This document shows positions 14,419-56,109 of a stretch of DNA of 64,000 nt, piece after piece. A model generated the notes under the pieces. It was not told the origin of the DNA, did not search any database, and worked only from the letters and a program-made list of their open reading frames with translations. The translations under genes and the position numbers were made by a program. Location: IMG/VR virus record IMGVR_UViG_3300044712_000833, positions 1 through 64,000 of that record. One strand, given 5' to 3'. The stretch is from a virus. Position 1 is the first letter of the stretch, and each line of letters begins with the position of its first letter.

Positions 14419-14477
14419 ATAAAATGGGACTTTTATTAATACATTAAAACTGCCTGATACAATGTGTCAGGCATCTA

Positions 14478-14550
14478 GCCGTTGTAGCTCAATTGGCAGA
14501 GCAACTGTTTTGTAAACAGTAGGTCTCGAGTTCAAGTCTCGATGGCGGCT
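14478..14550 (+). tRNA. tRNA-Thr(TGT)
   Basis: ACTGT-TTTGTAA-ACAGT anticodon arm, TTCAAGT T-loop; acceptor has 3 G-U pairs; no CCA. Confidence 0.85.
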
Positions 14551-14552
14551 CT

Positions 14553-14647
14553 AGAAAAAAGATAGATTAGGATCGCAACCTGATTGAAAGCGGTGTCTCC
14601 CCGTTTCTTTTTTCTTATTTTTATGGAGAACAATAGGAGAGGAGAAA
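14553..14647 (+). ncRNA. three-helix leader RNA, copy A (before putative small terminase)
   Basis: P1 AGAAAAAAGA/TCTTTTTTCT, GATAG, P2 ATTAGG/CCTGAT, TGAAAG, loop TGTCTCC vs downstream GGAGA x3. Confidence 0.6.
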
Positions 14648-15667
14648 ATGGTAAAAACAAGAAGACTTGCCCCCGAAATTACAGTGGAATCAGGGTTGCC
14701 TCAAAATTTTGGGTTATGTAGAAAATGTCAAAAAATAAAAAAACTTCAGGACTTTTATAAAGCAACGGATTTATTTTTAGATTCTAATGGTCATATGTCC
14801 GTATGTAAAGACTGTATAAACACAATGTACGTTTCTATATTAGACTCCGAACACGGTTCTATATCTAAGACGATTCTTAGAATGTGCAGAATGTTGAATG
14901 TAAAGTATGATGAGAGTGCTATCTCATCTGCGTTGGAACATACTAAAATAAGAGAAGCAGATGAAACAAAACTTTTTGGTTTTTATAGACTAAAACTTTT
15001 GACTAATAATAGAACAGACGTTAGTGATACTTCCGTTGATCTAACTTATAAAGACAGCCCTGTTATTAATATGGGGTTTGATAAACCAATGGAATACGAA
15101 GTTTCTCAGGATGTAATTGACTTTTGGGGTGAAGGATTTGAAACCTCGGAATATGAATGGCTTGAAAAGACTCTTGATGGCTGGAAGAAAACTCACAAAT
15201 GCGACACTAAAGCCGAAGAAGTTTTGTTTAGAGAAATAGTGTTTAAGCAATTTGAAATTGAAAAGGCAAGAAAAGAAAATTCTTCTACTAGCAGTCTCAT
15301 TAAAGAACTTCAAGATATTATGAAAACCGCTTCGGTTGATCCTGCAAAGGCTAATGTTGCTGGTGCTGGAAAAAGTCAAGATACGTTTTCTGCATTTATA
15401 AAAATGATTGAAGAAAACGAACCTGCTGAAGTATTTGGAGATGAGAGAGAAGCCTTTAAAGATTTTCAAGGTATAGAGAAATATTTTTACAAATATGTAG
15501 TTCGATCCATAAAGAATTTTATTACTGGCAGTAGGGATTTTAATCTTGATGCTGAGGAAGATGAGATAGAAGGGGAAATAGAAGAATACGAACCTTTAAA
15601 TTATAATCCTGAAGAAAGCGAACAATCTTCTGACGATAATTCAGAGGAGGCAGAGAATGTCGTATAA
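14648..15667 (+). CDS. putative terminase small subunit (Zn finger)
   Basis: CRKC...CKDC; overlaps TerL start; SPbeta-like synteny. Confidence 0.55.
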   Translation: MVKTRRLAPEITVESGLPQNFGLCRKCQKIKKLQDFYKATDLFLDSNGHMSVCKDCINTMYVSILDSEHGSISKTILRMCRMLNVKYDESAISSALEHTKIREADETKLFGFYRLKLLTNNRTDVSDTSVDLTYKDSPVINMGFDKPMEYEVSQDVIDFWGEGFETSEYEWLEKTLDGWKKTHKCDTKAEEVLFREIVFKQFEIEKARKENSSTSSLIKELQDIMKTASVDPAKANVAGAGKSQDTFSAFIKMIEENEPAEVFGDEREAFKDFQGIEKYFYKYVVRSIKNFITGSRDFNLDAEEDEIEGEIEEYEPLNYNPEESEQSSDDNSEEAENVV

Positions 15668-18555: not shown

Positions 18556-18567
18556 GAGAAAAAATAA

Positions 18568-18903
18568 ATGAATATATTAAATGCGGTAAATGCAACAGCG
18601 ACAAGTACAAATACTAGCACCTTGGTTTCGGGGTCTATTTTAAATGCTACAAACGGTATGAGTGTATCTTTTACAGTAAAAAACACAGGATTGACAAACA
18701 GTGTTGACTATTTAATTATAGCAGGAAACGCATCTGACTTAAGTGATGGTGTAACTGTTCAGAACTCAGCTACTTTGGCGGCTGGTGCTGTCGGATCATA
18801 TTCAATTCAGATAGCCCCTTTTTGTTATTACGGTGTGAAAATCGCTTCGACCTCTGCTGGTAATCATACTACAGTTGAAGCCAAAGGTAGAGTTAGAGGT
18901 TAA
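18568..18903 (+). CDS. small beta-rich protein, possibly virion-associated
   Basis: A/T/S/G-rich; in head module. Confidence 0.6.
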   Translation: MNILNAVNATATSTNTSTLVSGSILNATNGMSVSFTVKNTGLTNSVDYLIIAGNASDLSDGVTVQNSATLAAGAVGSYSIQIAPFCYYGVKIASTSAGNHTTVEAKGRVRG

Positions 18904-18904
18904 T

Positions 18905-19111
18905 GTGAATGAAGAACTAAAAAAGAGATTTGAATATCATGAACTAGATGAAAATCAGATGGAGCTAATCGAGGAACTGAGAACAAGATTTATTGAACTC
19001 GCTCAATTCATTGATGCAAACTGTCCCGTTTCCAGAGAAAAGGCGTTAGCAATGACACACTTGGAGATGAGCAGTTTCTATACCAATGCTTCTGTTAGCA
19101 GATATTCCTAA
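18905..19111 (+). CDS. Acb2/Tad1-hairpin-like protein (candidate immune-signal sponge)
   Basis: FEYH...Q...LR...LA..I...CP.SREKALAMTHLE; GTG start after GAGGT. Confidence 0.6.
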   Translation: MNEELKKRFEYHELDENQMELIEELRTRFIELAQFIDANCPVSREKALAMTHLEMSSFYTNASVSRYS

Positions 19112-19131
19112 CATATAAGAAAGGAGGAGAC

Positions 19132-20739: not shown

Positions 20740-20794
20740 TAAAATTACCAGTTTAAAAAATATATATCTGTAACTGGCAGATAAAAGGAGAGAA

Positions 20795-21559
20795 ATGTTT
20801 CGTAATAATATGATTGTATCAATCAAAAGTGATTCAAAGTTTTTTAGAGAAGAAAAAGATGTAGTTAAAATTTCATTTGGAACAGAATATAGTATTTACA
20901 TGAAGAACCAAAATGAGACAGACGCTTTAGTTTCAATTTTAATAGATGGAGAAGATGTTCTTTCTGGAAACAAAATTATTCTTAGGTCTAAATCTATTTT
21001 AGATTTAGAAGGATTCCTTGATGGAAGTCAAGTTAAAAATAAATTTAAGTTTATAGAAAGAATTTCAGAAATTGAAAGTCATAGAGGAATAAAACCCGAT
21101 GATGGAATAATTTCTATTTCTTTTACATATGAAAAAGAAAAACCAAAATATCAACCTTATGTTGTTTATTATCCTAAGTATGAATGGAAATATGTTCCAT
21201 ATACAATAACTTATACCGACTCAAATTCATTAATGGAAAAAAGTGTTTTGGGATCAGCAGGAGTATCTAATGATGTTTCTTGGACTTCCACCTACGCAAA
21301 TTATTCTAATTATATGACTAATTCGATGAATGAAAATGGAATAACCGTAAAAGGAAGTAATATTTCTCAAAACTTTGGATATGGTTGGTTAGGTGAAATG
21401 GAAGATGTTTCTACTACAATGTCTCTAAGATTGATTGGATTCAAGGACGAAACAAAAAACGTATTTACTTCAGATTTGACAGAATGTAAAATCTGTGGAT
21501 ATAAATCAAAAAAGAATTATAATTTTTGTCCTAAATGCGGGACAATAATAATAAAATAA
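20795..21559 (+). CDS. hypothetical protein with C-terminal zinc ribbon
   Basis: CKICG...FCPKCG. Confidence 0.7.
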   Translation: MFRNNMIVSIKSDSKFFREEKDVVKISFGTEYSIYMKNQNETDALVSILIDGEDVLSGNKIILRSKSILDLEGFLDGSQVKNKFKFIERISEIESHRGIKPDDGIISISFTYEKEKPKYQPYVVYYPKYEWKYVPYTITYTDSNSLMEKSVLGSAGVSNDVSWTSTYANYSNYMTNSMNENGITVKGSNISQNFGYGWLGEMEDVSTTMSLRLIGFKDETKNVFTSDLTECKICGYKSKKNYNFCPKCGTIIIK

Positions 21560-21670
21560 TAATTTTATCAATGATTTGAATATTGTCCTGACCAGACAGT
21601 ATTATTTCTTTATCTCATAGATAAATTCTTAATATCTATGTAAAATTAAGGTCATATAAGGAGAAACAAA

Positions 21671-22324
21671 ATGTCAGAACCAAGATTAACAGCACTACAA
21701 ATTAAGCAACTAAATAACATGAACGCCGCCGCTCAAAGAGCGGATTTGGGAACAAGACTAGATGAAATTCAATACGATGGTGTACCAGATGTTTCTGCTG
21801 GAACAGTTTTAGGAATGAATGTTATTTCATATTCTATAACTCCTGCTTTAGCCTCTACAACTGGTGTCCATGCGGCAATTACTCTTCCCACTAGCGGAAC
21901 AACTGTGGTAACTACTTCAATTACAAACCCTGACTTTCCTCGTCAAATTACAATCACAGGTAATGCCGCTGGAATTACAGGTAATGTCGTTATTGTTGGC
22001 ACAGATATTGCAGATGCGGCTCTCACTGAAACTCTCGTTGCTGTAGATAATACTACTGTAACATCAACTAAAGCGTTTAAAACTGTTACATCAATTACTG
22101 TCCCCACTCGAACAACCGCTGGTGATACAATATCTGTTGGAACTGGCGCAAAAGTTGGTTTCCCTGTCGCTATCCCTCAAACAACTCGCGTGTTAGCTAA
22201 GAATTTCAATGGATCAACTGACGCTGGAACTGTTACTGCGGGAGCAACTGCCCCATTGTCCGTATATGCCGCCGCTGGATCATTTGATGGTGCAAAAGTA
22301 CTTGAGCTAATTTTCATTGCTTAG
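21671..22324 (+). CDS. putative virion (head-associated) beta protein
   Basis: T/A/G-rich; in head module. Confidence 0.55.
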   Translation: MSEPRLTALQIKQLNNMNAAAQRADLGTRLDEIQYDGVPDVSAGTVLGMNVISYSITPALASTTGVHAAITLPTSGTTVVTTSITNPDFPRQITITGNAAGITGNVVIVGTDIADAALTETLVAVDNTTVTSTKAFKTVTSITVPTRTTAGDTISVGTGAKVGFPVAIPQTTRVLAKNFNGSTDAGTVTAGATAPLSVYAAAGSFDGAKVLELIFIA

Positions 22325-22341
22325 TGTGAAAGGTGGTAAAA

Positions 22342-22833
22342 ATGATACCACTTATTAGTGATTCATTAAAGGATTCTTTGGTACAACAAATCGCCGAAGA
22401 GAAGAAAAACGCTAATATCTATTTGTCTATAGCCTCTTACTTAAATGGTAAGGGGCTTTCTAATTTAGCAAAAAAATTCGAAGAACAGCATTCTGAAGAA
22501 ACAGAACATTCTTTAATTTTATATAAGTTGTTATCTGACTTATCTATTGTCTTTAACGTTCCTGCAATTGAATTATATGACATTTCTTCAATTGATAATA
22601 TTGTTTCTCTTGCTGAATTGTATCTTGACAGAGAGTATCAAACAACAGAATCTCTTGGGGAAATAAAGAAACAGTCGATGGATGAAGACAATTATGTTGT
22701 TGAAGAGCGAATTAGAGAAATGATAAAACTTCAACAAACAGAATATGCTGAAGCTACAGAGTTTTTGGATAGATCAAATCTTCTTAGAGAATGGTGGCAA
22801 GTGGCTTTATGGGATTCTTCACTGGGAGGTTAA
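22342..22833 (+). CDS. ferritin (non-heme, FtnA-like)
   Basis: QIAEE...Y.SIASYL...F..Q..EE.EH...E...T...Q..E ferroxidase pattern. Confidence 0.8.
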   Translation: MIPLISDSLKDSLVQQIAEEKKNANIYLSIASYLNGKGLSNLAKKFEEQHSEETEHSLILYKLLSDLSIVFNVPAIELYDISSIDNIVSLAELYLDREYQTTESLGEIKKQSMDEDNYVVEERIREMIKLQQTEYAEATEFLDRSNLLREWWQVALWDSSLGG

Positions 22834-22834
22834 T

Positions 22835-23008
22835 ATGGCTATTTATTCTGCTATACAACCGATTGCGGATTATCTTATAGGAAAAGACTTTGTTCCCGAT
22901 TCTTATGATTACAGATATTTTTATTTTACAGTTACCGAACAACTAACGGACGCATTAAGTAGTATGCCTTATTGGTATAGAAACTTATTTGCCCCACCTT
23001 GGGGGTAA
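22835..23008 (+). CDS. small protein, paralog of next gene
   Basis: IADYLI...YF..TEQL..AL..MPYWY; SD GGAGG. Confidence 0.6.
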   Translation: MAIYSAIQPIADYLIGKDFVPDSYDYRYFYFTVTEQLTDALSSMPYWYRNLFAPPWG

Positions 23009-23009
23009 T

Positions 23010-23219
23010 ATGTATGTAACAAATCCTCAAAAAATAGATAAATCAAAACTTTATGTTTGCAATGGAATAATTGCAAATTATTTGATATATGAAAAGCATT
23101 TACCATTATTCTCTCACGATAGGTCAGATGGAAAATGGTATTTTGCAAAAACAGAACAATTAGAAAAGGCAATTGAGGAATTACCCTTTTATTATAACGT
23201 GATTAAATTTATATGGTAA
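23010..23219 (+). CDS. small protein (DUF5659-like by position and motif)
   Basis: IANYLI...YFAKTEQLEKAI..LPFYY. Confidence 0.6.
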   Translation: MYVTNPQKIDKSKLYVCNGIIANYLIYEKHLPLFSHDRSDGKWYFAKTEQLEKAIEELPFYYNVIKFIW

Positions 23220-23225
23220 TTAGTA

Positions 23226-23254
23226 TTGACAGAAAATCTATTCTGTGATACAAT
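23226..23254 (+). promoter_or_regulatory. promoter of nuclease cassette
   Basis: TTGACA-N17-TACAAT with TG. Confidence 0.8.
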
Positions 23255-23259
23255 TATAC

Positions 23260-23353
23260 TAGATGGATAGGGTCGCTCCCGAAAAGCAGTAACTCTCAAC
23301 TGTTCTCCATCTATTTTATATTTAGTTGAGAAATTATTTGGAGAGAAGTAAAA
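23260..23353 (+). ncRNA. three-helix leader RNA, copy B
   Basis: P1 TAGATGGA/TCCATCTA, P2 GGG/CCC, GAAAAG, P3 CAGT/ACTG, loop CTCTCA vs GTTGAGA and GAGAG (SD). Confidence 0.75.
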
Positions 23354-24337
23354 ATGAGAAAAAGAACTGAAAAAGAAATAAAACAAGTTGTTGAAAATTT
23401 AGAGTATAGTTACATTAAAAGTTATCTGGGAAATAAGAATATTGTAAGGGTGATTATTCAAGATAAAAGAGGATACAAATATGATGTTGTGATTTATAGT
23501 ATTTTGCGTGGTCAAGGTATTAATTTTGTAGATAAAAGTAATCCTTTTTCCTTAGAAAATATTTCCCTATGGTTAAAGCTTAACAATAGTCAATTTGAAT
23601 TAGTTAAAGATAATGAATATATAAATGCCTTTTCAAAATTGAATTTGTATTGTAATGTATGTAAAGATTATCCAAAAATGAGTTGGAATAACGTTTTGGC
23701 AGGAATAGCCTGTGGTGTTTGTAAGGGATTTCAGGTGGGAAAACGTCACAATCTAGCTGCTCAAAGACCTGATATAGCAAAAGAATGGCATCCAGCAAAA
23801 AACGGAAGTTTGACCCCGCAAGATGTTACTCACGCATCCCATGAGAAAGCATGGTGGTTATGTCCAGACGGACACGAATATTTTTCAAGAATAAATTCTA
23901 GGACGAATTTGGGAAATGGGTGTAAAGTTTGTTCAGATGAGAGACAGGAATCTAAAATAGCCAATAGGTTAAAGTTCTATATTCTTAGCAAATATCATGC
24001 CAAAGAAGAATATAGAATATACAAAAATCCTGAAACAAATAGATGGCTTCCATATGATATTTATATTCCGTATGGTAGCAATCCTGAATTGAATGGATTT
24101 TATATAGAAATTCACGGCGAACAACACTATAAGATTTGTACTTGGCACAAATTAGTAGCCAATAGAAATAAAATAAGTCCAGAAGAAGAATTTAAATACC
24201 AGAAACGAAAAGATAGATTAAAAAAGAATTTTGCAAAGAAAAACGGAACCTACATAGAAATTGATCTTCGCAAGATAAAAATTGAACAAGATGCAATTGA
24301 ATATATAGAAAAAATTTTAGAGCAAACTCTCCTTTAA
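23354..24337 (+). CDS. free-standing Zn-finger plus Vsr-like endonuclease
   Basis: treble-clef repeat, ESK...YDIY...IEIHGEQHY. Confidence 0.8.
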   Translation: MRKRTEKEIKQVVENLEYSYIKSYLGNKNIVRVIIQDKRGYKYDVVIYSILRGQGINFVDKSNPFSLENISLWLKLNNSQFELVKDNEYINAFSKLNLYCNVCKDYPKMSWNNVLAGIACGVCKGFQVGKRHNLAAQRPDIAKEWHPAKNGSLTPQDVTHASHEKAWWLCPDGHEYFSRINSRTNLGNGCKVCSDERQESKIANRLKFYILSKYHAKEEYRIYKNPETNRWLPYDIYIPYGSNPELNGFYIEIHGEQHYKICTWHKLVANRNKISPEEEFKYQKRKDRLKKNFAKKNGTYIEIDLRKIKIEQDAIEYIEKILEQTLL

Positions 24338-24352
24338 TCAAGGAGAGTTTTT
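24324..24352 (+). terminator. terminator overlapping nuclease 3' end
   Basis: AAACTCTCCTT/AAGGAGAGTTT plus T. Confidence 0.65.
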
Positions 24353-24370
24353 GTTTGGAAGGGAGGTAAT

Positions 24371-26380
24371 TTGACTAAAAAATTAAACTTTGAAATTGAA
24401 AGTGCGGAAATAATTTCCGAAGAACCATCCTCTGAATTTGCAACAGCTAGAATCACAGCTTTTAGTGACGGGGTGAGTAGACATAACACTATTTGCGACG
24501 TAGAAGCACTTAAAAGAACAGCTCCAACAATATATGAAACCCCTCTTGTTTATGAATATGACAGTAGGTTTTCGGATTTCGGAACACACTCTGAAAAACC
24601 AGTAATTGCTGGATTTGTTGTTCCTAACTCTGCGGAGTTTTACGAGAGAAATGATGGAACAGGAAGAACGAGTTTAAGTGTGTTAACGAAGGTGTGGAAA
24701 CGTTATGCTCCTCAATTCATTAACATTTTTAAAAGAGATGGTACAAAAAAAAGATCGGTTTCAGTTGAGATGGAAGTTAGAGACTCTGAAGAAGAGGGAG
24801 AGTACTTGCGTCTTAAGGATTGGGTATATACTGCGATATGCGTATTAGGCGAAATGGTTACTCCCGCCTCCCCCGATGCTGAGTTAGAAATGCTTTCTTT
24901 TGCAGAGAAAAATAATCAAGAATACAAAGAAGCTTACGAGTTAGAGTTTGGTGGTCGTTACGATGATTTAAATTTTAAGATACCTTCTTCCGTTAAAAAC
25001 AATGCAAAACAAGGTCTTGAATTAAGAGAAAAATTTGGTAGAGGTGGGACATCTGTTGGACTTGCTTCAGCAAGATATTTAGTGAGAAATGATGTTGCAA
25101 CTCCTGAAAAAGTTAGGCATATTGCAAAATACTTTCCGCGCCATGCCGGGGACAATCTTGACGATAAAGAATCTAATGGTTGGATAGCGTGGTTACTCTG
25201 GGGTGGAGATGCTGGCAGAAAATGGTCTACTTCTCTTGTTAAACGAATGGATGAGTTAGACGAAAAGAAAATGTCCTATTTCGCAGAGGAGGAAGAAATG
25301 CCATATAAAAGCATAAAAGATGTTAATCCTGCTATAAAAGGTATTAGTCCAGAGCCTACTTTGTCACAAGCGAATCAGATAGCAAAAGAGGCTGATGCAA
25401 TTGGTTCTGATGAAGATAAAAATGGATGGGCGATTGCAATTGCAAACTTTAAAAAGACTCACGTTGTAAAAGACGGAAAGTGGATTAAAAAAGAAAAAGA
25501 GGAATTTGCAGAAGATAATTATCTTGGAATTGAAAACTTTTCATATAATTCTTCTCAAATCCTAGAAATTATTAATTCTTCACTTGGAGAACATAAGTGG
25601 GGAGACGGATTTAGAAAATATTGGGTAGAGTCATTTGATGAATCCTACGCATATATTCACGACAACGAAGATGATAAATATTATAGAGTACCATATCAAT
25701 TAGACGGGGGCGTTTGTTCCTGTGATTTGGAAAATAAAGAAAATGTTATAAGAGGAGGTTTTGAATTAGTTATGGCTAACCCTAACGAAGAAGACAAAAA
25801 ATTCAATTACGCCGAAGTTTTTGCAGATGAAAAATTCGCAGAAATGTTTGCCGAAGTTGAAGAAGATCAAGAAGAGGAAGAGAGAGAAGAGGGAGAAAAA
25901 GAATCATACGCCAAAGCCAAGGAAGAGTTTGGGATGGGTATGAATCCTTCTACTGTCATGTCTGCTATGTATTCGGCAATGAAGCGAATGGGTAAGAGAT
26001 TTGCTTCAATGAAAGAAAAAATGTCAGCTATGGAAAGAGACAAAGAAGTATATCTTGCTGAAAATGCCGATATGAAACAGCGTTTTGCAGATCAAGAAGC
26101 ACAGCAAAAGGAAATGGCTGTTGATGCTTTCATGAAAGAAATGGCTGAAAAGGTCGAAATGGCTGAAGAACAGGTTTCTGAAATGAAGGAAAAATCAAAA
26201 GAATATTCTTTTGAAAAAATTGAAGATTGGAAAAATCATGTAAAGGCTTTTTGCTTTGATTTTAAACCAAAGAAAAATCAAGAAGAAAATGAAGATAAAA
26301 CATTTAAATTCGGTCTTGGTTTTGAAGATATAAAAATCCCACAAACAGGTAATGTTTGGGATAAACTTGATACTAAATAA
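24371..26380 (+). CDS. prohead protease/scaffold polyprotein with inserted domains
   Basis: HNT...P.V...H...SVSVEM...ICVLG...PA; acidic coiled-coil C-terminus; ChaB-like segment. Confidence 0.75.
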   Translation: MTKKLNFEIESAEIISEEPSSEFATARITAFSDGVSRHNTICDVEALKRTAPTIYETPLVYEYDSRFSDFGTHSEKPVIAGFVVPNSAEFYERNDGTGRTSLSVLTKVWKRYAPQFINIFKRDGTKKRSVSVEMEVRDSEEEGEYLRLKDWVYTAICVLGEMVTPASPDAELEMLSFAEKNNQEYKEAYELEFGGRYDDLNFKIPSSVKNNAKQGLELREKFGRGGTSVGLASARYLVRNDVATPEKVRHIAKYFPRHAGDNLDDKESNGWIAWLLWGGDAGRKWSTSLVKRMDELDEKKMSYFAEEEEMPYKSIKDVNPAIKGISPEPTLSQANQIAKEADAIGSDEDKNGWAIAIANFKKTHVVKDGKWIKKEKEEFAEDNYLGIENFSYNSSQILEIINSSLGEHKWGDGFRKYWVESFDESYAYIHDNEDDKYYRVPYQLDGGVCSCDLENKENVIRGGFELVMANPNEEDKKFNYAEVFADEKFAEMFAEVEEDQEEEEREEGEKESYAKAKEEFGMGMNPSTVMSAMYSAMKRMGKRFASMKEKMSAMERDKEVYLAENADMKQRFADQEAQQKEMAVDAFMKEMAEKVEMAEEQVSEMKEKSKEYSFEKIEDWKNHVKAFCFDFKPKKNQEENEDKTFKFGLGFEDIKIPQTGNVWDKLDTK

Positions 26381-26402
26381 TTTATAGGAGGAATTTTTAA
26401 TT

Positions 26403-26942
26403 ATGGCACAAAATATTTTAATCCCCAACGCAATTGCCGCGCAAAACGTGGATGCTTGGAATCGTTCTGCCGTTGCCGCTACTAATGTAGATAACGGTAA
26501 CATTGTAATTTTGTCGGCTCTCTCTTCAACTGCTGGTGAAGGTGAAGTTTGGACAGCACTTACTCCTTCAACCTCAAATGGTTTGACTGGGGTATGGATG
26601 GTTTATCAGCCCGAACTTGTGGAAACCGCTGAGAAGTATCGTGGTCTTGATCCTGATCCTCGTAACTTCTACGTTCCTGACGGTAAGGTGTTTAGTTGCT
26701 TTAAACCTCAACTGGGCGATATTGTGACTATGACCGACGATGGTATTGCTGGAACAAAATCAACAAATACTTTTGCTAACGCTACCGATTCAACAGGCGG
26801 CTTAAAACCGGTTTGGGGTGCTTCACAAACCTCAAGCGTTTTCTCAATGAAACTCATTGAAACTACTTACATCTCTATTGGTTCGGGTGCTATTGACTCT
26901 CAACGTGTCACAGCCTATAAGTTCCAAGTTGTAGGTCTTTAA
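26403..26942 (+). CDS. head decoration/cement protein
   Basis: position between scaffold and capsid; VDNG motif. Confidence 0.6.
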   Translation: MAQNILIPNAIAAQNVDAWNRSAVAATNVDNGNIVILSALSSTAGEGEVWTALTPSTSNGLTGVWMVYQPELVETAEKYRGLDPDPRNFYVPDGKVFSCFKPQLGDIVTMTDDGIAGTKSTNTFANATDSTGGLKPVWGASQTSSVFSMKLIETTYISIGSGAIDSQRVTAYKFQVVGL

Positions 26943-26973
26943 TTTTAAGATTTAGGAGGATATAAAAATAATT

Positions 26974-28116
26974 ATGGCTATTACTCATAAAGCACCTAGT
27001 AATGTTATTGCTTTCGCGGGTGGCGAAGCGAATCTTGGCGTGTACGAAGCCTTTGCTGATTACTGGAATCAGTATCAATCAGAAATGCTAAACAAGAAAG
27101 GTCTTTTCTATCATCAGACTCGTAATGTTGATGGTAAGGTTGTGCCTTTCTCTTTGGCTGAAAAAGAACAAGTTATTAATCAAGCTTTAAAGAAAGAAAT
27201 TCTTCGTAAGGCTGGTATTTCTAATATCAATGACTTCCCTCTTGAAACTTGGGCTGGTCATCCCGTTCTTAATTGGGCGGCTTTCGCGGTTGTGACGAGC
27301 ATGATTGATATGATCCTGCCTCAAACCCTTATTGAAACAATCGGTCTTTACACTGAAGTCAAAACAATCGGTTGGGGCGACTCCGCCGCTTTCGATGTGA
27401 AACCAAGAGACCTTTTCGCTGTTTCTAAGGTTGGTCGTGGTAAGAGACAAACTGAACTTAAGAAACAATATAACGGTCAGGTGGTTCTTAATCCTGAACC
27501 TCGTCAGCTTGCTGTTTCTGTAAGCCTCTATCGTGTTTTGGCTGGTCAAGAGTCTCTTGCTGATTTCACAATGAAGGCTGTTCGTTCAATTGAAACTCAG
27601 ATGACATATGATGCGTATGACGCATTTGCCAGTGCAATGAATGCAATTGATAATACTGCATCAACTGGCTTGAGAGTTAGTGGTTATAGTCAGGCTGATT
27701 TTGTTAGACTTTCACAGACTGTAAGTGCATGGAACGGAGGAGCCAAACCCATTGCAATAGGTACTATGGCGGCTCTTTCCAATGTATTGCCTTCAGACGC
27801 AAATTATCGTTATACTTTGGAAGACGACTATGTGAAGCTTGGTTACATTCGTAATTTCCAAAATACAGACGTTATGGTTCTTCCTCAATTGGCGGACTAC
27901 ACTACTCCTTTTGGTTTGAAACTTGCTGATAATCGTATTTGGATCATCACTCCCTCAACCAATAAAATTGTTAAGGCTGTTCTCGAAGGCTCTACTCTCG
28001 CTTATACTGATGGTGTTTATCAGAACGCAAACCTGATGCAAAACGCCAATATCCAGAAGTCATGGGCGGTTGGAATCGCCACAAATTCGGTGGGAGCCAC
28101 GATAGAACTTTCGTAG
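26974..28116 (+). CDS. major capsid protein
   Basis: 380 aa, strong SD, position in head module. Confidence 0.8.
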   Translation: MAITHKAPSNVIAFAGGEANLGVYEAFADYWNQYQSEMLNKKGLFYHQTRNVDGKVVPFSLAEKEQVINQALKKEILRKAGISNINDFPLETWAGHPVLNWAAFAVVTSMIDMILPQTLIETIGLYTEVKTIGWGDSAAFDVKPRDLFAVSKVGRGKRQTELKKQYNGQVVLNPEPRQLAVSVSLYRVLAGQESLADFTMKAVRSIETQMTYDAYDAFASAMNAIDNTASTGLRVSGYSQADFVRLSQTVSAWNGGAKPIAIGTMAALSNVLPSDANYRYTLEDDYVKLGYIRNFQNTDVMVLPQLADYTTPFGLKLADNRIWIITPSTNKIVKAVLEGSTLAYTDGVYQNANLMQNANIQKSWAVGIATNSVGATIELS

Positions 28117-28124
28117 TTTTACCC

Positions 28125-28153
28125 TTGACAAAATTCTAGTTTTGTGGTAAAAT
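28125..28153 (+). promoter_or_regulatory. promoter of nuclease cassette
   Basis: TTGACA-N17-TAAAAT with TG. Confidence 0.8.
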
Positions 28154-28158
28154 AAAAT

Positions 28159-28249
28159 ATTGAACGGATAGGTTATCGAGACTGAAAAGCGTAATCCCTA
28201 ACGCCTGCCGTTCAATTATTTATTTAGGGAATTATTATAAGGGAAAATA
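28159..28249 (+). ncRNA. three-helix leader RNA, copy C
   Basis: P1 ATTGAACGG/CCGTTCAAT, GATAG, TGAAAAG, loop AATCCCTA vs TAGGGA and AAGGGA (SD). Confidence 0.75.
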
Positions 28250-29230
28250 ATGTCAAAAAAATTGGATTTAAAAGATAAGGTTTTCGGAAGACTAAGGGTA
28301 ATTACTGAGGGTGAAAATTATGTTTCTCCAGATGGGGTTTCTTGTAGTACTTGGATTTGCTTATGTGAATGTGGAAACACTGTTGTTGCAAGAACCTCTA
28401 ATCTTAGAAACGGAAGGTCTCTTTCCTGTGGTTGTTTGAAAATAGAAAAAATAAGACAGTTAAAAATAATAGATTTGTCTGGTAAAATTTTCGGAAAACT
28501 TAAAGTTGATAATTTGTATGAAAACAGAGACGGAAAGATTTATTGGTCTTGTTTTTGTGAGTGTGGGGAAAAAACAGTCGTTCTTGGTAGTAATTTAACT
28601 TCTGGAAAAACTAAATCTTGTGGATGTGGGGAATTAGAACATAAAATGTCTTTTGGAAGAATAAATTTTGAAGACCTTTCTGGTCGTGTTTTTGGAAAAC
28701 TACATGTTGAAAAAATATATAGAAGTTTTAATGAAGAGATTGAGTGGGAGTGCGTTTGTGAATGTGGAAACACTACATATGTAACAACAAATAGGTTGAA
28801 GTCGGGAGCAACTAAATCTTGTGGGTGTTTGAGAGAATCTTTCATAGCATCGGAATTAAAAAAATACTTTTTTGAAAACTATAATGCTGAAAAAGAAAAG
28901 AAATTATTCAAAAATCCAGATACAAATCAATGGTTCAAGTGCGATGTTTATATTCCCTATGGAGAGAATCCTGATGTAAATGGGTTTTACATAGAAATCA
29001 ATGGTGAACAGCATTATCAAATATCTGGATGGACTAAGAAAAAATCCTACAACAAAAACACAACTCCCGAAGAAGAATTTGAATATCAGAAGTACAAAGA
29101 TAAAATTAAGAAAAAATATTGCAATAAAAATGGTTATTACGTCGAAGTAAATCTACTAAAAATAAAAACGGTAGATGAGGCTATCAACTATGTTGAAAAA
29201 CAAATAGAAAAAATAATAGGAGAAAAGTAA
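28250..29230 (+). CDS. free-standing endonuclease (3x WxCxCxCG..SCGC repeats plus Vsr-like domain)
   Basis: three FGxLxV...WxCxCECG...SCGC repeats; C-terminus similar to 23354 ORF. Confidence 0.8.
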   Translation: MSKKLDLKDKVFGRLRVITEGENYVSPDGVSCSTWICLCECGNTVVARTSNLRNGRSLSCGCLKIEKIRQLKIIDLSGKIFGKLKVDNLYENRDGKIYWSCFCECGEKTVVLGSNLTSGKTKSCGCGELEHKMSFGRINFEDLSGRVFGKLHVEKIYRSFNEEIEWECVCECGNTTYVTTNRLKSGATKSCGCLRESFIASELKKYFFENYNAEKEKKLFKNPDTNQWFKCDVYIPYGENPDVNGFYIEINGEQHYQISGWTKKKSYNKNTTPEEEFEYQKYKDKIKKKYCNKNGYYVEVNLLKIKTVDEAINYVEKQIEKIIGEK

Positions 29231-29232
29231 AA

Positions 29233-29799
29233 GTGCCAAGAAAGTCACAAACGAGGGCAACTGTTGTTATGGAAGCCCCAATCGAAGAAGATTTTGTTAA
29301 CAATAAAATTTCACTCGATGAATTGATAAAGGTTGTATCCTTGATTGATTATCCACTAAACCTGCTACCGCAAGGTCAAAATGCTGGAGGCAGAGCCAAA
29401 TACCGTTTTGAGAAATTTGGTGAAGCCAAACAAGTCATCTATCAAGATATTCTTCAAATCATTGAACAATATCGTTCCTTTATGGAAACGGGTAAATTCA
29501 TGATTTTAGACCCAAGAGTAATTGCTAGACACGGTTTACATGAAATTCAATCAAAAGTTCTACCGAAAGAAGCCCTTGAAAAAATTCTAGATGGTTCAAA
29601 AGAAGCCGTAGAAATTTTCAAATCTTCAGGTGAGGAACAACAAAAAACAATTATTGGTATGCTTACACGGAGACTGGCGGCTGATCCAAAATCAGTAGAC
29701 TTGAATGTTGTGGATGAAATCTCACGATACGCAAAGGTAAACATTCAGCAAAACGCTGAAGAATCAAGAGAATTATTTACCAAAAAAGAGACGGAATAA
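29233..29799 (+). CDS. conserved post-capsid hypothetical protein
   Basis: SPbeta-like synteny. Confidence 0.65.
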   Translation: MPRKSQTRATVVMEAPIEEDFVNNKISLDELIKVVSLIDYPLNLLPQGQNAGGRAKYRFEKFGEAKQVIYQDILQIIEQYRSFMETGKFMILDPRVIARHGLHEIQSKVLPKEALEKILDGSKEAVEIFKSSGEEQQKTIIGMLTRRLAADPKSVDLNVVDEISRYAKVNIQQNAEESRELFTKKETE

Positions 29800-29812
29800 C
29801 CGTCTCTTTTTG
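29782..29812 (+). terminator. intrinsic terminator
   Basis: AAAAAGAGACGG/CCGTCTCTTTTT. Confidence 0.8.
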
Positions 29813-29837
29813 TTTAAGAAAGGAGGGATAATAAGCA

Positions 29838-30290
29838 TTGACAACTCCATTCTCTACAATTTACGATCAATTCATGATGTTTGTTACAGATTATAGACTA
29901 AATGAATTATACAATACAAGTGTTCCGGATTTTGAAACTTATTTGTCTGGATTTTTAATTCCTGCAATAACAGATTTCAAAGGTTGTAATCAATCTCTAG
30001 TTTATAGTACCTCGACATTTTCAGAAACATTAACAGAAGAAAATATAAAAATTTTAGCTATGTTAATGAAAAAATATTGGTTAACTAAAGAAATTGATGA
30101 TATAACCCAAATGAATCTTCATGTTACAGATAGAGATTTTAGAGTTTACTCTGAAAGTCAAAACATGAGAGAGAAGCAGAATAGGTTAACGTTAGAGCTA
30201 GAACAATTATCCCAACTTCTAGTTGATTATGGACTTGACAATACCGATTGGTCTGCTTGGTTAAACGGTAATTTTTATGTTCCATCATAA
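29838..30290 (+). CDS. putative head-tail adaptor
   Basis: TPFSTIY..F...VTD N-terminus; position. Confidence 0.55.
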   Translation: MTTPFSTIYDQFMMFVTDYRLNELYNTSVPDFETYLSGFLIPAITDFKGCNQSLVYSTSTFSETLTEENIKILAMLMKKYWLTKEIDDITQMNLHVTDRDFRVYSESQNMREKQNRLTLELEQLSQLLVDYGLDNTDWSAWLNGNFYVPS

Positions 30291-30301
30291 GGGAGGTAAA
30301 A

Positions 30302-31588
30302 ATGTCATATCCCTTTATGGCGGCAGGTAGTGTTTTAAATAATCAAAACCCAAAAGAAACTTATACAAAACTTTTACAACAAACATTAAATAAAGAATTT
30401 TACAACTCAACAGATTGGTATACTGTTGAAGAAGAAACCGTTCTTAGATCAGAAACTTATCAAAATGTAGATGTAAGAATAAATAATGTAGTAGCACCAA
30501 CAACAGGCGATAATGTAGAAGATGACTATAAAAAAATTTTATTTAAAGAATTAAATCACTCTGTTGATTTAGGACGGCTGTATAGATTCGATAGTAATTT
30601 TTGGTTAACAATAAATGTTGACAAAATAAAAACGTTATTTCAAACAGTCGTTGTAAAAAGATGTAACAATGTTCTTAGATGGTTAGACGAAGAAACAGGG
30701 GCTTTATATGAAGTGCCTTGTTCGATTGGTTATTTGATTAAAGAAAACAGAGACTACGCTACAGCAGGTTCAGCAGTTGTTGTACCTTCAGGTATGGTGG
30801 ACTGCTATTTTCAAATAAACTCTAAAACAAATAAAATAAAACCTAATCAAAGATTTTTGTTCGGTAATCCTTCAAATTGGACTGCTTATAGAGTTGAGGG
30901 TGGTGGTATTAATAACTTTAATAATCAAGAAACATTTGATAATAATAGCGCGGCTCTTGGTCGATTCAGTCTTGCGGTTGACTTTGTAAATAAACAAACT
31001 GACGATTTAGTTAATGGAATAGCAAATGCTTATGATAACCAATACGTTGTTACATTAGATCAATCTTCAATATCTGGAAATGCTACTCAAACAATTCAGT
31101 TGAGAGCTAGTGTTACCTTGAATGGAGAAAGTGTAGTTAGAACACTAATTTGGAGTTCAAATAATACATCCATTGCAACAGTAAATTCTTCTGGTTTAGT
31201 GACGCTTGTTTCTGCTGGAAGTTGTATAATCACATGCTCTTTATCTAACAACTCTTCTGTCTATGATACCACATCTGTAACAGTAGGAGTGTCTCCTGTC
31301 GATAATTATCAGGTAGTTGTATCTCCAGATAAAAATTATATTCTTGAGGGACAGGAACAAACATGGCTTATTTATTTATATAAAAATAATGTACAACAAG
31401 CAGATACATTCAGTTTTTCTCTTGACTCAAATACCGTTCCATCTTCTAATTATATTTATACAGTTTTAGGAGACAATTCTTTTAAAATAAAAAATATAAA
31501 GATGTTCCTAACTGATAATTTAGAAATAACAGCTACTTCAGGACTATATTCAAAAACAATAATAGTTTCATTGAATGGCGCATGGTAG
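30302..31588 (+). CDS. putative head closure protein with Ig-like (BIG2) domain
   Basis: WSSNNTSIATVNSSGLVT. Confidence 0.65.
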   Translation: MSYPFMAAGSVLNNQNPKETYTKLLQQTLNKEFYNSTDWYTVEEETVLRSETYQNVDVRINNVVAPTTGDNVEDDYKKILFKELNHSVDLGRLYRFDSNFWLTINVDKIKTLFQTVVVKRCNNVLRWLDEETGALYEVPCSIGYLIKENRDYATAGSAVVVPSGMVDCYFQINSKTNKIKPNQRFLFGNPSNWTAYRVEGGGINNFNNQETFDNNSAALGRFSLAVDFVNKQTDDLVNGIANAYDNQYVVTLDQSSISGNATQTIQLRASVTLNGESVVRTLIWSSNNTSIATVNSSGLVTLVSAGSCIITCSLSNNSSVYDTTSVTVGVSPVDNYQVVVSPDKNYILEGQEQTWLIYLYKNNVQQADTFSFSLDSNTVPSSNYIYTVLGDNSFKIKNIKMFLTDNLEITATSGLYSKTIIVSLNGAW

Positions 31589-31595
31589 GAGGGAT

Positions 31596-32174
31596 ATGGG
31601 TAGTGAAAATATAAATAGTGGCTCATATGCTCAATATGATGATTATGATATTTTACCATACACGCTTGTAAAATATTTAATGAATAATAATGAAATGATA
31701 TGGAAGCTTTTAAAATATAATGGAAATGATGCTTGGAAACAACCGAATTTGACACTTACTGAAAAAGGCTTGTTGGTTTATAATGGAACATCCGATAACA
31801 CAGTTGATTACCGTGTCTTTCTTGATCGTGGTCAGCCTGATGTTCAAACATTCGAAACTTGTCAGATAAGAATAGCTAATTATTCTGTGTTTCCAGATAA
31901 CAGAACTGTTGGTACTGTTTCTATGATATTTGAAGTGTATACTCATTATAAATCAAATCATCTTAGTAATTATAGAACAAGAAACGATATGATAATGAAA
32001 CATCTTCGTCAAACATTTAATGGAAAAATTATTCCTAGAGAAACTGATGGGGGAAGTGGAACTATTGGGAAGTTATTCTTTGATAGGTTGGCAAGCGAGT
32101 CGAACAGACAAGAGTTGGGCGGACAACTTCCTTTCTTGGGGTCATGGATGATTATGTCGTTTAAATCTAACTAA
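31596..32174 (+). CDS. putative tail terminator/completion protein
   Basis: position; SD AGGAGG. Confidence 0.5.
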   Translation: MGSENINSGSYAQYDDYDILPYTLVKYLMNNNEMIWKLLKYNGNDAWKQPNLTLTEKGLLVYNGTSDNTVDYRVFLDRGQPDVQTFETCQIRIANYSVFPDNRTVGTVSMIFEVYTHYKSNHLSNYRTRNDMIMKHLRQTFNGKIIPRETDGGSGTIGKLFFDRLASESNRQELGGQLPFLGSWMIMSFKSN

Positions 32175-32184
32175 AGGAGATAAG

Positions 32185-32967
32185 ATGTCATCCTTTAGAG
32201 AAATTTATTATACATTCGATCAGCCTGTTCCTTATAAATCTTTATTAATATATCCTATAAAAATACAGGATTACTATGAGTTCTTGTTTTTTATTCCTTG
32301 TTTAATGCTTGAAAAAAACAGTATCAAAGACCCCAATCTTGCAATCAAAGCCATTTCAATGAGCTATCTTGCTTATATGTATGAAATTTCAACTAAAGAA
32401 AATAATTACACTCAATTATTTGACGGCTTATTGCGATTGGTATTAAAAACAAAAGATAAAGAAAAAAATATAAAGTATGGCTACGAAAAAGATAACATTC
32501 CATATTTTATGATAGATAATAAAAAATATTATTCCGAAGATTTTGATGAAATAAGAAAAATAATCTCTGAACAAAATCTTATAGACCTTCCTGACGAAAA
32601 AATACAAAAAAATGTTCGTGATGCTTTGGAAGAAGCTAGAAGGTTCAAACAAAAATTAAATAATAATAAAATGGCTTCTTTCGAAGAGCAAATGATGGCG
32701 TTGGCAACCTACACTGGTTGGAGTCTTGAAGAAATATACAACATGACTTACAGAAAATTTATTCTTGCAATTAGACGAGCTAACCAAATAATTATGTCCA
32801 ATATTTATTTGACAGCTAGTATGTCTGGATTTGTTTCATTTAAAGACAAGAGCATTTTAAAATCTTGGATTTCAGATGTAAACGAAGATGACAAATACGC
32901 TGATGTAAAAATGAGTCCTGAACAACTGCAATCAAAAGCAAATTTTGAAGAAGCTAAAACAAAATAA
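32185..32967 (+). CDS. putative tail assembly chaperone
   Basis: EEIYNMTYRKF motif; position. Confidence 0.5.
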   Translation: MSSFREIYYTFDQPVPYKSLLIYPIKIQDYYEFLFFIPCLMLEKNSIKDPNLAIKAISMSYLAYMYEISTKENNYTQLFDGLLRLVLKTKDKEKNIKYGYEKDNIPYFMIDNKKYYSEDFDEIRKIISEQNLIDLPDEKIQKNVRDALEEARRFKQKLNNNKMASFEEQMMALATYTGWSLEEIYNMTYRKFILAIRRANQIIMSNIYLTASMSGFVSFKDKSILKSWISDVNEDDKYADVKMSPEQLQSKANFEEAKTK

Positions 32968-32987
32968 TTTAGGAGGAAAGATTAAAT

Positions 32988-34040
32988 ATGGCAACTAAAA
33001 AGTTTTTGACTTCGGTCGCCGATGTGTATGGATATGATGACAATAATCAACTTATCTTTACAGGCAAAACTCTGTTAGATTCTTCAATCGAAGTGACATT
33101 AGGAAACACAGAAGTTCGCGGAGGAAGAGGGTCACAACTCCAATATATTTACTATCATAGCAATGCTATGAATATAACCCTTAATGATTGTCAGTGGAAC
33201 CTAGCTATGTTGGCGGCTACTACTGGTCAATCCATTGCAGTTGGTTCTGATGTTTATACCGAAGAAACAATTACGCTTGGAGCAAGTGGTTCTGGAACAG
33301 TTACGGGAACTCCCTTGGCGGTTACAGGAACTACTATTTATGGATGGGTTACTCAATTGAGTGGATTAACTGAAAGAGTTACTTTCTCTGGATCAACCTT
33401 TGCTTCTTCTTCCGGTGCTTCTGGAGATGTTGTTTGTGTTCGTTATTATGCCGCTGATGCTAACGCTAGAAGCATTACAATTCCAGCCAATGTAATTCCA
33501 AAAGTTGTTCGGTTGGTTATGGAGGCTCAATTAAATTCAAGCGATGTTTCCAGCAACCAAATTGGTAAAGTTCAATTTATTGTTTATAAGGCAACTTTGA
33601 GTGGTAGCTTTACCATATCAATGACAAGCGATGGGGTAGCACAGACTCCTCTTACCGCTATGGCTCTTGCCTATCAAGATACCGAAACAGCCGCCTGTAC
33701 GAATGCGCCTGTATATGCAAAGATAATTGAAATTATAGACAATATTAATTGGTATGATGATTTGATTGCCGTTGCTGTTGAAGGTGGCAACTTTTCTTTA
33801 GCTACAACTTTAGGAACAAAAACTCTTGTTGTCTATGGTATTACTTCAAATCCGTCAGAGGCTCCATTTATTATTGATAATGCGGATTTGTCGTTTACTT
33901 CGGGTACTACTGGAGTCGCAACTGCGGGCTTGCACACGGGACTCATCACGGGTGTCAGCGCAGGAACATCTCTTATTACAGTTGTTGTTGATGATAAGAA
34001 TACAATCGAAGCGCAAGTAACCGTTACGGTTCCTAGTTAG
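32988..34040 (+). CDS. major tail tube protein with C-terminal Ig-like domain
   Basis: EVRGGRG motif; Ig-like FTSG...ATA...GLITGVSAG. Confidence 0.75.
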   Translation: MATKKFLTSVADVYGYDDNNQLIFTGKTLLDSSIEVTLGNTEVRGGRGSQLQYIYYHSNAMNITLNDCQWNLAMLAATTGQSIAVGSDVYTEETITLGASGSGTVTGTPLAVTGTTIYGWVTQLSGLTERVTFSGSTFASSSGASGDVVCVRYYAADANARSITIPANVIPKVVRLVMEAQLNSSDVSSNQIGKVQFIVYKATLSGSFTISMTSDGVAQTPLTAMALAYQDTETAACTNAPVYAKIIEIIDNINWYDDLIAVAVEGGNFSLATTLGTKTLVVYGITSNPSEAPFIIDNADLSFTSGTTGVATAGLHTGLITGVSAGTSLITVVVDDKNTIEAQVTVTVPS

Positions 34041-34047
34041 TTATGTG

Positions 34048-34076
34048 TTGACAAATTACTAAAACTGTGATATAAT
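34048..34076 (+). promoter_or_regulatory. promoter of nuclease cassette
   Basis: TTGACA-N17-TATAAT with TG (perfect consensus). Confidence 0.9.
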
Positions 34077-34095
34077 AAATAACCAATTTATTTGG

Positions 34096-34186
34096 TATAT
34101 GCGGGATAGAATAATGTCATGAACTATTTGATAAGTGAGACTCTACACTTCCCGCATATAAAAAATTTTAGAGTTCTAGAGGAAGA
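34096..34186 (+). ncRNA. three-helix leader RNA, copy D
   Basis: P1 TATATGCGGGA/TCCCGCATATA, TGATAAG, loop GACTCTA vs TAGAGT and TAGAGG (SD). Confidence 0.75.
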
Positions 34187-35098
34187 ATGTTAGAAAAAAT
34201 AAAAGAGTTTGGTTTTAATTTCTTAATGGTTGACCAAGAAAATTCTTCACAGATTCATATAGAAAACAAGGAAGGCTATAGAACAAGAACCACGATAGGT
34301 AAAATATTATCTGGTAAAAATCAATTTAAATCAATAGCTCATCCAAGCAACCCATATAGTTTATATAACATAAATCTTTTTATAAAGAAAAATAAAATGA
34401 ATTTTTATCTTTTAGAGAATAATACATATACTTCAGCAACAGATAAGAATTTAAAATGTTATTGTTATGAATGTCAAGATATATTTCTAGCAAGATGGCA
34501 AAGTATAAGTACATTTCATGGATGTGGTCTATGTAATGGAAAACAAGTGGGAGTTAAAAACTTAAAAACCCAAAGACCAGATTTAATAAAAGAATGGTCA
34601 AACAACAATGCAAATCTCCCCGAATCATACTCCGAATTTTCTCACTCCGAAGTCTTATGGAGGTGTTCAGTTTGTGGAAATGAGTGGGCTGATAAAATAT
34701 CCAATAGAACAAATTTAGATAGAGGGTGTAAAAAGTGTTCTATGAGCAAGGGAGAAAAAAGAATATTTCAATTCATTAAGTCTTTTAATTTAAAATTTTC
34801 AAGCGAATATTCTGAAATTCCTTCTGTTAAAAACGGAAAGTTAAGATTTGACTTTTATTTATCGGATTATAATCTTTTCATAGAATATCATGGTATTCAA
34901 CATTACGAACCTATAGATTTTGCTGGAAAAGGTAAAGAGTGGGCTAAAAATCAATTTAAAGAAAACCAAAGAAGAGATAAAATTAAAGAAAAATATTGTT
35001 ATCACAATGATATAAATTTGTTAATAATTCCTTATTGGGATTACGATAACATTGAAAAAATATTAGAGGAAACTCTTCAAGAATTAGAAAGGAGTTAA
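34187..35098 (+). CDS. free-standing Zn-finger plus DUF559/Vsr-like endonuclease
   Basis: SKGE...LRFDFY...IEYHGIQHY...RD..K..YC....LLIIPYW. Confidence 0.8.
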   Translation: MLEKIKEFGFNFLMVDQENSSQIHIENKEGYRTRTTIGKILSGKNQFKSIAHPSNPYSLYNINLFIKKNKMNFYLLENNTYTSATDKNLKCYCYECQDIFLARWQSISTFHGCGLCNGKQVGVKNLKTQRPDLIKEWSNNNANLPESYSEFSHSEVLWRCSVCGNEWADKISNRTNLDRGCKKCSMSKGEKRIFQFIKSFNLKFSSEYSEIPSVKNGKLRFDFYLSDYNLFIEYHGIQHYEPIDFAGKGKEWAKNQFKENQRRDKIKEKYCYHNDINLLIIPYWDYDNIEKILEETLQELERS

Positions 35099-48324: not shown

Positions 48325-48353
48325 TTGACAAAATAATGCTTTTATGGTAGAAT
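48325..48353 (+). promoter_or_regulatory. promoter of relic cassette
   Basis: TTGACA-N17-TAGAAT with TG. Confidence 0.8.
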
Positions 48354-48357
48354 ATTT

Positions 48358-48415
48358 TTGGTAGATAGGGAATCTAGACCTGATAAGAACGTAATCCCAA
48401 ACGTTCTTCTACCAA
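48358..48415 (+). ncRNA. three-helix leader RNA, copy E (orphan)
   Basis: P1 TTGGTAGA/TCTACCAA, GATAG, TGATAAG, P3 AAGAACGT/ACGTTCTT, loop AATCCCAA. Confidence 0.7.
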
Positions 48416-48426
48416 TTTTATTTTCT

Positions 48427-48477
48427 TTTGATAATATAGAAAACATTTTAGAGAAAATACTATCTGAGTTGAGATAG
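48427..48477 (+). pseudogene. C-terminal remnant of deleted endonuclease gene
   Basis: translates FDNIENILEKILSELR*, cf. YDNIEKILEETLQELERS* of the 34187 ORF. Confidence 0.65.
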
Positions 48478-48507
48478 TGTTTTTTATTTTAAGGAGGATT
48501 TTAAATA

Positions 48508-56039: not shown

Positions 56040-56109
56040 AATCCTCCTGAAAATTAAGATATAAATAGGGCGGCTCTCTAAAAGAAAGTCACCCTATTAT
56101 TTTTACTTT

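Follow-up and report, generated by a model that had tools for sequence, protein, structure and literature searches.

A structured RNA leader, present as copies A to E in the first 64 kb of the 129.7 kb viral record IMGVR_UViG_3300044712_000833 (the stretch analysed here, referred to as the window), carries a hairpin loop that matches two successive sites in the sequence that follows it, and in homologs from phages and bacteria the loop and both sites covary. The leader is a three-way junction of helices P1, P2 and P3, and at least copies B and C are the known Rfam family int-alpA (RF02996). It is probably a cis-acting translational control leader, in which the P3 loop would serve as an anti-Shine-Dalgarno (anti-SD) sequence with a decoy (site 1) and the Shine-Dalgarno (SD) sequence itself (site 2) as rival partners. 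An earlier sequence-only reading of the window had noticed the element, and that observation is confirmed, but it had missed the identity with int-alpA, whose model already reaches site 1.

The covariation was assessed in two sets of homologs, collected with a pattern that comprised P2 and the J2/3 core and left the P3 loop and the tail unconstrained. In viral contigs, the covariance model gave 88 elements, of which 81 were unique, 80 usable (L069 lacks a tail) and 68 distinct in their loops. In bacterial genomes it gave 85 elements, 83 of them unique, 74 usable (loop of 5–12 nucleotides (nt), stem of at least 3 bp and tail of at least 70 nt) and 65 with distinct loops. Together, the two sets comprise 124 homologs with distinct loops, drawn from phages and from numerous bacterial phyla. 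An element was scored as having two sites if at least two non-overlapping perfect complements of its loop, each of at least 5 nt, lay in the first 70 nt of its tail. The tests were register-free k-mer matches, with cross-pairing, shuffling and permutation as controls. In the viral set, 49/68 loops found two sites in their own tail, compared with 270/4556 cross-pairs (5.9%) and 4.8% of shuffled loops; 2000 permutations gave a mean of 3.9 and a maximum of 11. The genome set, an independent replicate, yielded 34/65 own loops against 191/4160 cross-pairs (4.6%), with a permutation maximum of 9. Site 1 was matched over at least 5 nt in 61/68 viral and 52/65 genomic elements. Within the SD window (positions -22 to -3, with start codons called independently of the sites), a complement of at least 5 nt occurred in 75/121 elements and in 10.4% of cross-pairs. 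Across homologs, two-site matches thus far exceed the chance level.

Individual relatives illustrate the triple change. Copy C combines the loop AAUCCCUA with UAGGGA and AAGGGA, and its relative in contig L029 combines AAUUCCUA with UAGGAA and AAGGAA; likewise, CCGUAAU, AUUACGG and UACGGAGG in L013 correspond to CCUUGAU, AUCAAGG and CAAGGAGG in L018. Loops that do not resemble an anti-SD are still matched, as in L103 (UCGUC with GACGA and GACGAGG) and L075 (UUCCACGU with ACGUGGA twice), and the sequence immediately 5' of the SD core follows such loops (GACGA-GG, ACGUGGA-GG, GCUAAG-GAG, UUACGG-AGG). The earlier proposal that loop and targets change together is therefore borne out among close relatives, where the loop and both sites are altered jointly. 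The check that had been set beforehand as a refutation test, whether homologs keep the complementarity to both sites, found it kept, with loop, site 1 and site 2 covarying. Both pairings appear to be under selection, and the comparison of homologs supports two exclusive pairings well.

Geometry, duplex energies and the hairpin around the SD (P4) were analysed in the 86 of 124 distinct-loop elements that have two sites and a nearby start codon. The median distances were 8 nt from P1 to site 1, 8 nt from site 1 to site 2 and 8 nt from the end of site 2 to the start codon. In duplex with the anti-SD, site 2 averaged -7.75 kcal/mol and site 1 -4.35 kcal/mol, and site 2 was the better partner in 75/86; these modelled energies indicate that site 2 is the true SD. 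The loop's complementarity at site 2 overlaps the 5' part of this SD. In duplex with the loop, the values were -7.9 kcal/mol for site 1 and -7.1 kcal/mol for site 2, site 1 being the stabler partner in 53 elements and the less stable one in 26, with 7 ties. As both sites are matched by one set of loop nucleotides, the two pairings are mutually exclusive, and their near-equal duplex energies suggest that the RNA should partition between two states. The 5' arm of P4 begins right after site 1 and its 3' arm is the spacer between SD and AUG. P4, which the sequence-only reading had not noticed, covaries in its arms: they pair over at least 5 bp in 57/86 elements, compared with 20% of cross cases. 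Site 2 lies unpaired inside the P4 loop in 69/86. Because site 2 is normally in the P4 loop, the second state would be a loop–loop kiss rather than a plain pseudoknot. The idea of a pseudoknot with two alternative partners thus stands as far as the decoy and SD pairings are exclusive and covary, but the SD state is better described as a kiss with P4.

These features can be combined into a mechanism. The leader would stand at the 5' end of self-contained cassettes that consist of a promoter of their own, the leader and a homing-endonuclease-like gene, and the three-way junction would be a scaffold that presents the P3 loop to the tail as a custom anti-SD. Site 1, about 8 nt after P1, is single-stranded and a poor SD, and would be an anti-anti-SD decoy; site 2, about 8 nt further, comprises the 5' part of the real SD and a few upstream letters, usually displayed in the P4 loop. 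With the loop on site 1, in a long-range pseudoknot, the SD would be open to 16S ribosomal RNA and damped only by P4. With the loop on site 2, in a P3–P4 loop–loop kiss, the 5' half of the SD would be covered and the SD masked. P4 alone may act as a basal brake on translation, and with the RNA divided between the states, the gene that follows would be translated weakly or only for a short time. We infer the interconversion of the states, the OFF character of the site 2 pairing and any trigger.

Several observations weigh against this mechanism. Of the 124 distinct-loop homologs, 38 lack either a second match of 4 nt or more or a start codon no further than 22 nt away. The duplex energies leave out tertiary and loop-closure terms. 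The match to site 1 is longer than that to site 2 in 57 of the 86 elements, equal in 24 and shorter in 5, and site 1 is transcribed first; for these reasons the site 2 state may be rare unless it is promoted. The window copies are predicted to form P4 barely, if at all: it reaches -1.5 kcal/mol in copy B and -0.1 in copy C, with 0 in both D and A. The signal in the window is also modest, as shuffled loops reach a criterion of one site of at least 5 nt and another of at least 4 nt in 4–19% of trials (A 371/2000, B 356/2000, C 181/2000, D 88/2000). The composition is skewed, with CU-rich loops in copies A, B and D and GA-rich tails, and these three loops cross-match one another's tails. The homolog sets derive from one fixed P2/J2-3 pattern and so represent one subfamily, and their members are related by descent, an effect that loop deduplication and cross-pair controls lessen but do not remove. 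Finally, P3 has shrunk to a few letters in L083, L093 and L099, where the element is located before a primase-like gene. With practically no P3 loop and no sites in the tail, these members suggest that the junction may also serve a function for which the loop is not needed.

A broader interpretation, which we regard as tentative, is that int-alpA is a widespread bistable sensor, riboswitch-like or ribosome-responsive, whose junction would read a cellular signal and swing the anti-SD loop between decoy and SD. Candidate signals would be a metabolite, Mg2+, temperature, a ribosomal factor or the age of the transcript. If this were true, the leader would be a portable, host-independent expression gate for homing endonucleases, integrases and phage replication or accessory genes, and the loop/site specificity, distinct between copies of one genome, would avoid cross-talk.

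The roles of the two sites could also be reversed, although we consider this unlikely. Pairing of the loop with site 2 would then aid translation, for instance because P4 is remodelled or the SD brought into position, and site 1 would be an inhibitory competitor, so that ON and OFF would be the opposite of what the sequence-only reading had assigned. Activator pseudoknots beside the SD are known from the rep genes of IncI-alpha and IncB plasmids. In most homologs P4 encloses the 3' part of the SD and the spacer, and the state in which the loop holds site 1 leaves P4 intact and may stack on it, and hence is not obviously open; moreover, the complementarity at site 2 lies mostly in the 5' flank and includes just 2–3 letters of the SD core. 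However, most loops pair across the GG or GGA of the SD and should compete with 16S ribosomal RNA, and a loop–loop kiss normally keeps both stems closed and would therefore not open P4.

It is still less probable that the junction is a separate short transcript that acts in trans, its loop binding sites of other messages and the cis layout being incidental or partial. Rfam lists the family under the type 'Gene; sRNA' (small RNA), loops differ among copies of one genome, as expected if cross-talk matters, and copy E consists of a promoter and a junction without sites, followed by a terminator. Yet the best partners of every loop lie in its own tail at the fixed median distances given above, the tails after P1 in high-GC members are not terminators, and the loop of copy E has no convincing trans target in the 129.7 kb genome, in which 6-mers are too frequent to tell. 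Very improbable, lastly, is a static fold in which the loop pairs with site 1 alone as a structural pseudoknot, for example for stability of the 5' end, and the likeness to the SD is due to composition or chance: the Rfam model does end at site 1, any AAGG-type SD would be matched by the most frequent loops (CCUU type), and window loops A, B and D cross-match, but the cross-pair controls argue strongly against it, since cross-paired loops with the same composition bias find two sites in 4.6–5.9% of cases compared with 52–72% for own loops, and letters 5' of the SD core that are not SD-like follow the loop.

The cis-acting leader remains the reading we prefer, and the family to which it belongs is broad. 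The Rfam scores of copies C (47.7 bits) and B (37.8 bits) exceed the gathering score of RF02996 (35.8 bits), and 9/15 sampled viral loci pass the Rfam int-alpA threshold. Copies A, D and E gave no Rfam match for RF02996 even at E-values up to 10, and no int-alpA match was found in E. coli K-12. A first pattern scan had returned 23 loci, about 9 of them chance matches. At least 118 stretches of viral contigs match the core pattern, as do 86 stretches of bacterial genomes from many phyla, including Desulfobacterota, Nitrospirota, Planctomycetota, Acidobacteriota, Proteobacteria, Firmicutes and Bacteroidota. The 20-letter junction core is identical in phages and bacteria of more than 10 phylum-level groups. 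The 88 aligned members show strong covariation in the helices of the junction, with 94.7% of cells paired, changes on both sides in 13/16 pairs and a helix covariation score of 0.673, compared with 0.146 in shuffles and 0.04–0.075 in slid controls.

The proteins encoded downstream of the leader are diverse. Among 81 viral downstream proteins, Pfam domains included HNH_3 (15), NUMOD4 (7), HNH (5), AP2 (5), NUMOD3 (5), DUF4379 (5), GIY-YIG (3) and DUF559 (3), besides tail tube proteins, a methylase and SieB; 72 genomic downstream proteins were mostly without annotation. Phage_integrase was found in 1/81 viral and 1/72 genomic downstream proteins. Such a variety of unrelated families makes autoregulation by the gene product unlikely. 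The leader has apparently been exchanged as a module, because the leader of the GIY-YIG gene in L029 is nearly identical to that of copy C, whose gene is unrelated. L029, a 16.8 kb viral contig, holds three leaders (3821–3879, 8945–8998 and 10854–10910, minus strand) that differ in their loops and precede three different genes. Another contig with an int-alpA-type leader, L039, also contains a group I intron (6516–6763; Rfam, 91.9 bits).

The copies in the window are listed in Table 1.

Table 1. Positions in the window of the leader copies and associated features; R2 is the family covariance model built in this analysis.
Feature	Position	Strand	Details
Copy C promoter, TTGACA-17-TAAAAT, TG before -10	28125..28153	+	11/12 sigma-70-type matches
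Copy C three-way junction, P1/P2/P3	28161..28214	+	Rfam RF02996 47.7 bits; R2 44.4 bits
Copy C P1	28161-28168 with 28207-28214	+	
Copy C P2	28171-28174 with 28180-28183	+	
Copy C J2/3, GAAAA	28184-28188	+	
Copy C P3	28189-28192 with 28201-28204	+	loop AAUCCCUA at 28193-28200
Copy C site 1 (putative decoy), UUAGGGA	28224..28230	+	7 nt complementary to P3 loop plus the A that closes it on the 3' side
Copy C site 2, AGGGA in Shine-Dalgarno AAGGGA	28240..28244	+	5 nt complementary; ends 5 nt before ATG 28250
Copy C P4 hairpin, weak, A-U only	28233..28252	+	arms 28233-28238 and 28247-28252; -0.1 kcal/mol
Copy C downstream gene, 326 amino acids, homing-endonuclease-like	28250..29230	+	C-terminal domain common to products of copies B and D
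Copy B	23226..23356	+	promoter 23226-23254, junction 23260-23313, ATG 23354
Copy B loop AACUCUCA	23291-23298	+	
Copy B site 1, GUUGAGA	23325-23331	+	7 nt, two of which reach into the P3 stem
Copy B site 2, GAGAG	23341-23345	+	5 nt, inside SD GGAGAG
Copy D	34048..34189	+	promoter 34048-34076 (12/12), junction ~34097-34159, ATG 34187
Copy D loop AGACUCUA	34138-34145	+	
Copy D site 1, UAGAGU	34169-34174	+	6 nt complementary
Copy D site 2, UAGAG	34177-34181	+	5 nt complementary, overlaps SD
Copy A	14553..14650	+	junction 14553-14615, loop UGUCUCC 14594-14600, ATG 14648
Copy A GGAGA sites	14625, 14636, 14641	+	
Copy E, solo	48325..48492	+	promoter TTGACA-17-TAGAAT 48325-48353; junction 48358-48415

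The sequence-only reading had reported loops complementary to repeated downstream sites in copies A to D, and every string that it quoted was found where it had placed it. It had also restricted the complementarity to copies with an intact downstream gene, which agrees with the absence of a site pair in the geneless copy E. Its further statement that the last site is the SD holds for copies B, C and D, where the last site overlaps the SD, but not for copy A, where the last GGAGA is 2 nt from the ATG. SD-overlapping sites lie 5–8 nt before the ATG, a spacing that the middle GGAGA has in copy A. In copy C, the duplex with the loop is -9.2 kcal/mol for site 1, at which the 3' end of the Rfam model aligns, and -7.8 kcal/mol for site 2. 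The P4 loop of this copy (28239–28246) contains site 2 and the SD, and the AUG is part of the 3' arm; P4 in copy B is UUAUUU/AAGUAA. Minimum-free-energy folding of single leaders gave weak z-scores, by a method that cannot show pseudoknots.

The architecture of copies A and D is the same as that of B and C. The junction letters are UA (J1/2) and GAAAA (J2/3), with GAUAA in D and E and UGAAA in A. R2 scores were 62.4 bits for copy B (whose Rfam match spans 23260–23327), 38.3 bits for E (E-value 3e-7), 18.1 bits for D (E-value 0.033) and 13.2 bits for A (E-value 0.56). As its model scores are weak and it has no Rfam match, the family membership of copy A rests on architecture. This copy begins 3 nt after a tRNA gene (14478–14550) and has no promoter of its own. 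In its minimum-free-energy fold, the 3' strand of P1 and a U-rich linker pair instead with the purine-rich SD region. The loop of copy E, AAUCCCAA, is one letter away from that of copy C. Copy E combines a strong promoter and an intact junction with a terminator-like hairpin and U run at about 48462–48492, but no complementary site pair precedes the terminator and no intact gene follows. It represents either what is left of an endonuclease cassette that has been lost or an independent small RNA. A further R2 match, at 56058–56114, was rejected as a copy: it is a terminator-like hairpin between two converging or tandem minus-strand genes. This hairpin has U runs on both sides, is probably a terminator and also gives a weak false match to the Rfam family Parabacteroides-1.

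Copy C extends, at 28125–28252, from the -35 hexamer of a strong sigma-70-type promoter to the start codon of the 326-amino-acid gene. The best three promoter matches in the region 14400–34300 sit immediately 5' of copies D, B and C. Copy C had been placed 9 nt after the major capsid stop; the capsid open reading frame indeed ends at 28116 and the promoter begins at 28125. In the related contigs L007, L008 and L009, a homolog of the window's 29233 gene directly follows the capsid gene, without the copy C cassette. As the capsid gene adjoins the 29233-gene homolog in these three contigs, the promoter–leader–gene unit of copy C is an insertion relative to that gene order. A C-terminal nuclease-like domain is common to the genes after copies B, C and D, and those after B and D additionally encode a DUF4379 treble-clef finger; the product of the copy C gene had no Pfam match. 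When the position of the window copies was compared with that expected of int-alpA (before an integrase or alpA), they were found to precede homing-endonuclease-like genes and one unknown gene. Locus searches with single proteins (the copy C and copy B genes) found 2 loci each, none with an Rfam int-alpA match, and megablast of the region from the capsid gene to the homing endonuclease gene found no match among phage records. The capsid protein of the window shows 39% identity with that of Enterocloster phages. Just upstream of copy B (22333–22833) lies a gene with a ferritin-like/rubrerythrin domain (Pfam Ferritin, E-value 7e-13).

int-alpA has been an orphan structured RNA. The triple covariation suggests a concrete mechanism for it, built from a loop, a decoy and an SD in a second hairpin loop, and places the family in cis, before translation start sites. 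In phages, cassettes with the leader carry unrelated homing endonuclease families (HNH, GIY-YIG and PD-(D/E)XK-like). If the mechanism is true, it may be a general answer to the need for low expression of selfish, potentially toxic genes outside the T4 group. Rival partners of a single loop that are nearly iso-energetic, with freely re-programmable specificity, may also be of interest for RNA engineering.

Both the RNA family and the principle of masking an SD are known. The int-alpA motif derives from Weinberg et al. 2017 (PMC5737381), the main text of which does not contain the motif name; in another paper, 'int-alpA' denotes the gene order int-alpA-pri. The elements described here share with the Rfam model the three-way junction and the junction letters UA and GAAAA, and the loop consensus of the model, aaCCuUua, can pair with AgGG at the 3' end of the model, the part that aligns to site 1. 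However, the model stops at site 1, so that the SD-overlapping site and P4 lie outside it. Its Rfam type is sRNA, whereas here it is a leader before translation starts, in this phage before homing-endonuclease-like genes rather than integrase or alpA. A literature search, which covered the main text of the defining paper, found no description of an SD-overlapping second partner, of P4 or of a link to free-standing endonuclease cassettes, and the two-partner design appears undescribed in the literature searched.

Translational riboswitches use anti-SD/anti-anti-SD platforms, as in the thiM TPP type, or SD-masking pseudoknots, as in preQ1-II and SAM-II. They follow a logic of three elements, the SD, its masker and a masker of the masker, and the leader follows the same logic: site 2 (the SD) and site 1 both find their complement in one set of loop letters, and the pairings are exclusive. 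Unlike in such riboswitches, the masker here would be the loop of a hairpin borne by a junction scaffold, the decoy is placed after the folded domain and before the SD, and the description involves no ligand.

Control of homing endonuclease translation by RNA structure has a precedent in the T4-type genes. As reviewed in PMC3014915, the SD and/or AUG of I-TevI, mobE and segB are covered by RNA structure, which holds down translation of both intron-encoded and free-standing homing endonucleases, much as proposed here. As described there, those hairpins are simple and local, and late promoters with start points within them lift the block; among the promoter matches listed for the region 14400–34300, none was internal to P4. 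In contrast to these hairpins, the loop of a distant junction would pair with the SD in the leader, with a decoy in competition, and the arrangement is conserved across phyla and gene families. A parallel for a partition between folds is the E. coli rpsO (S15) operator, where, according to PMC3985624, an equilibrium between a pseudoknot and a double hairpin sets translation. Like the leader, this operator splits between two folds, one of them a pseudoknot in which the loop of a hairpin pairs close to the start site. In that account the gene product S15 selects the pseudoknot, whereas the proteins downstream of the leader belong to unrelated families, and in the two states proposed here a single loop would take one or the other of two partners.

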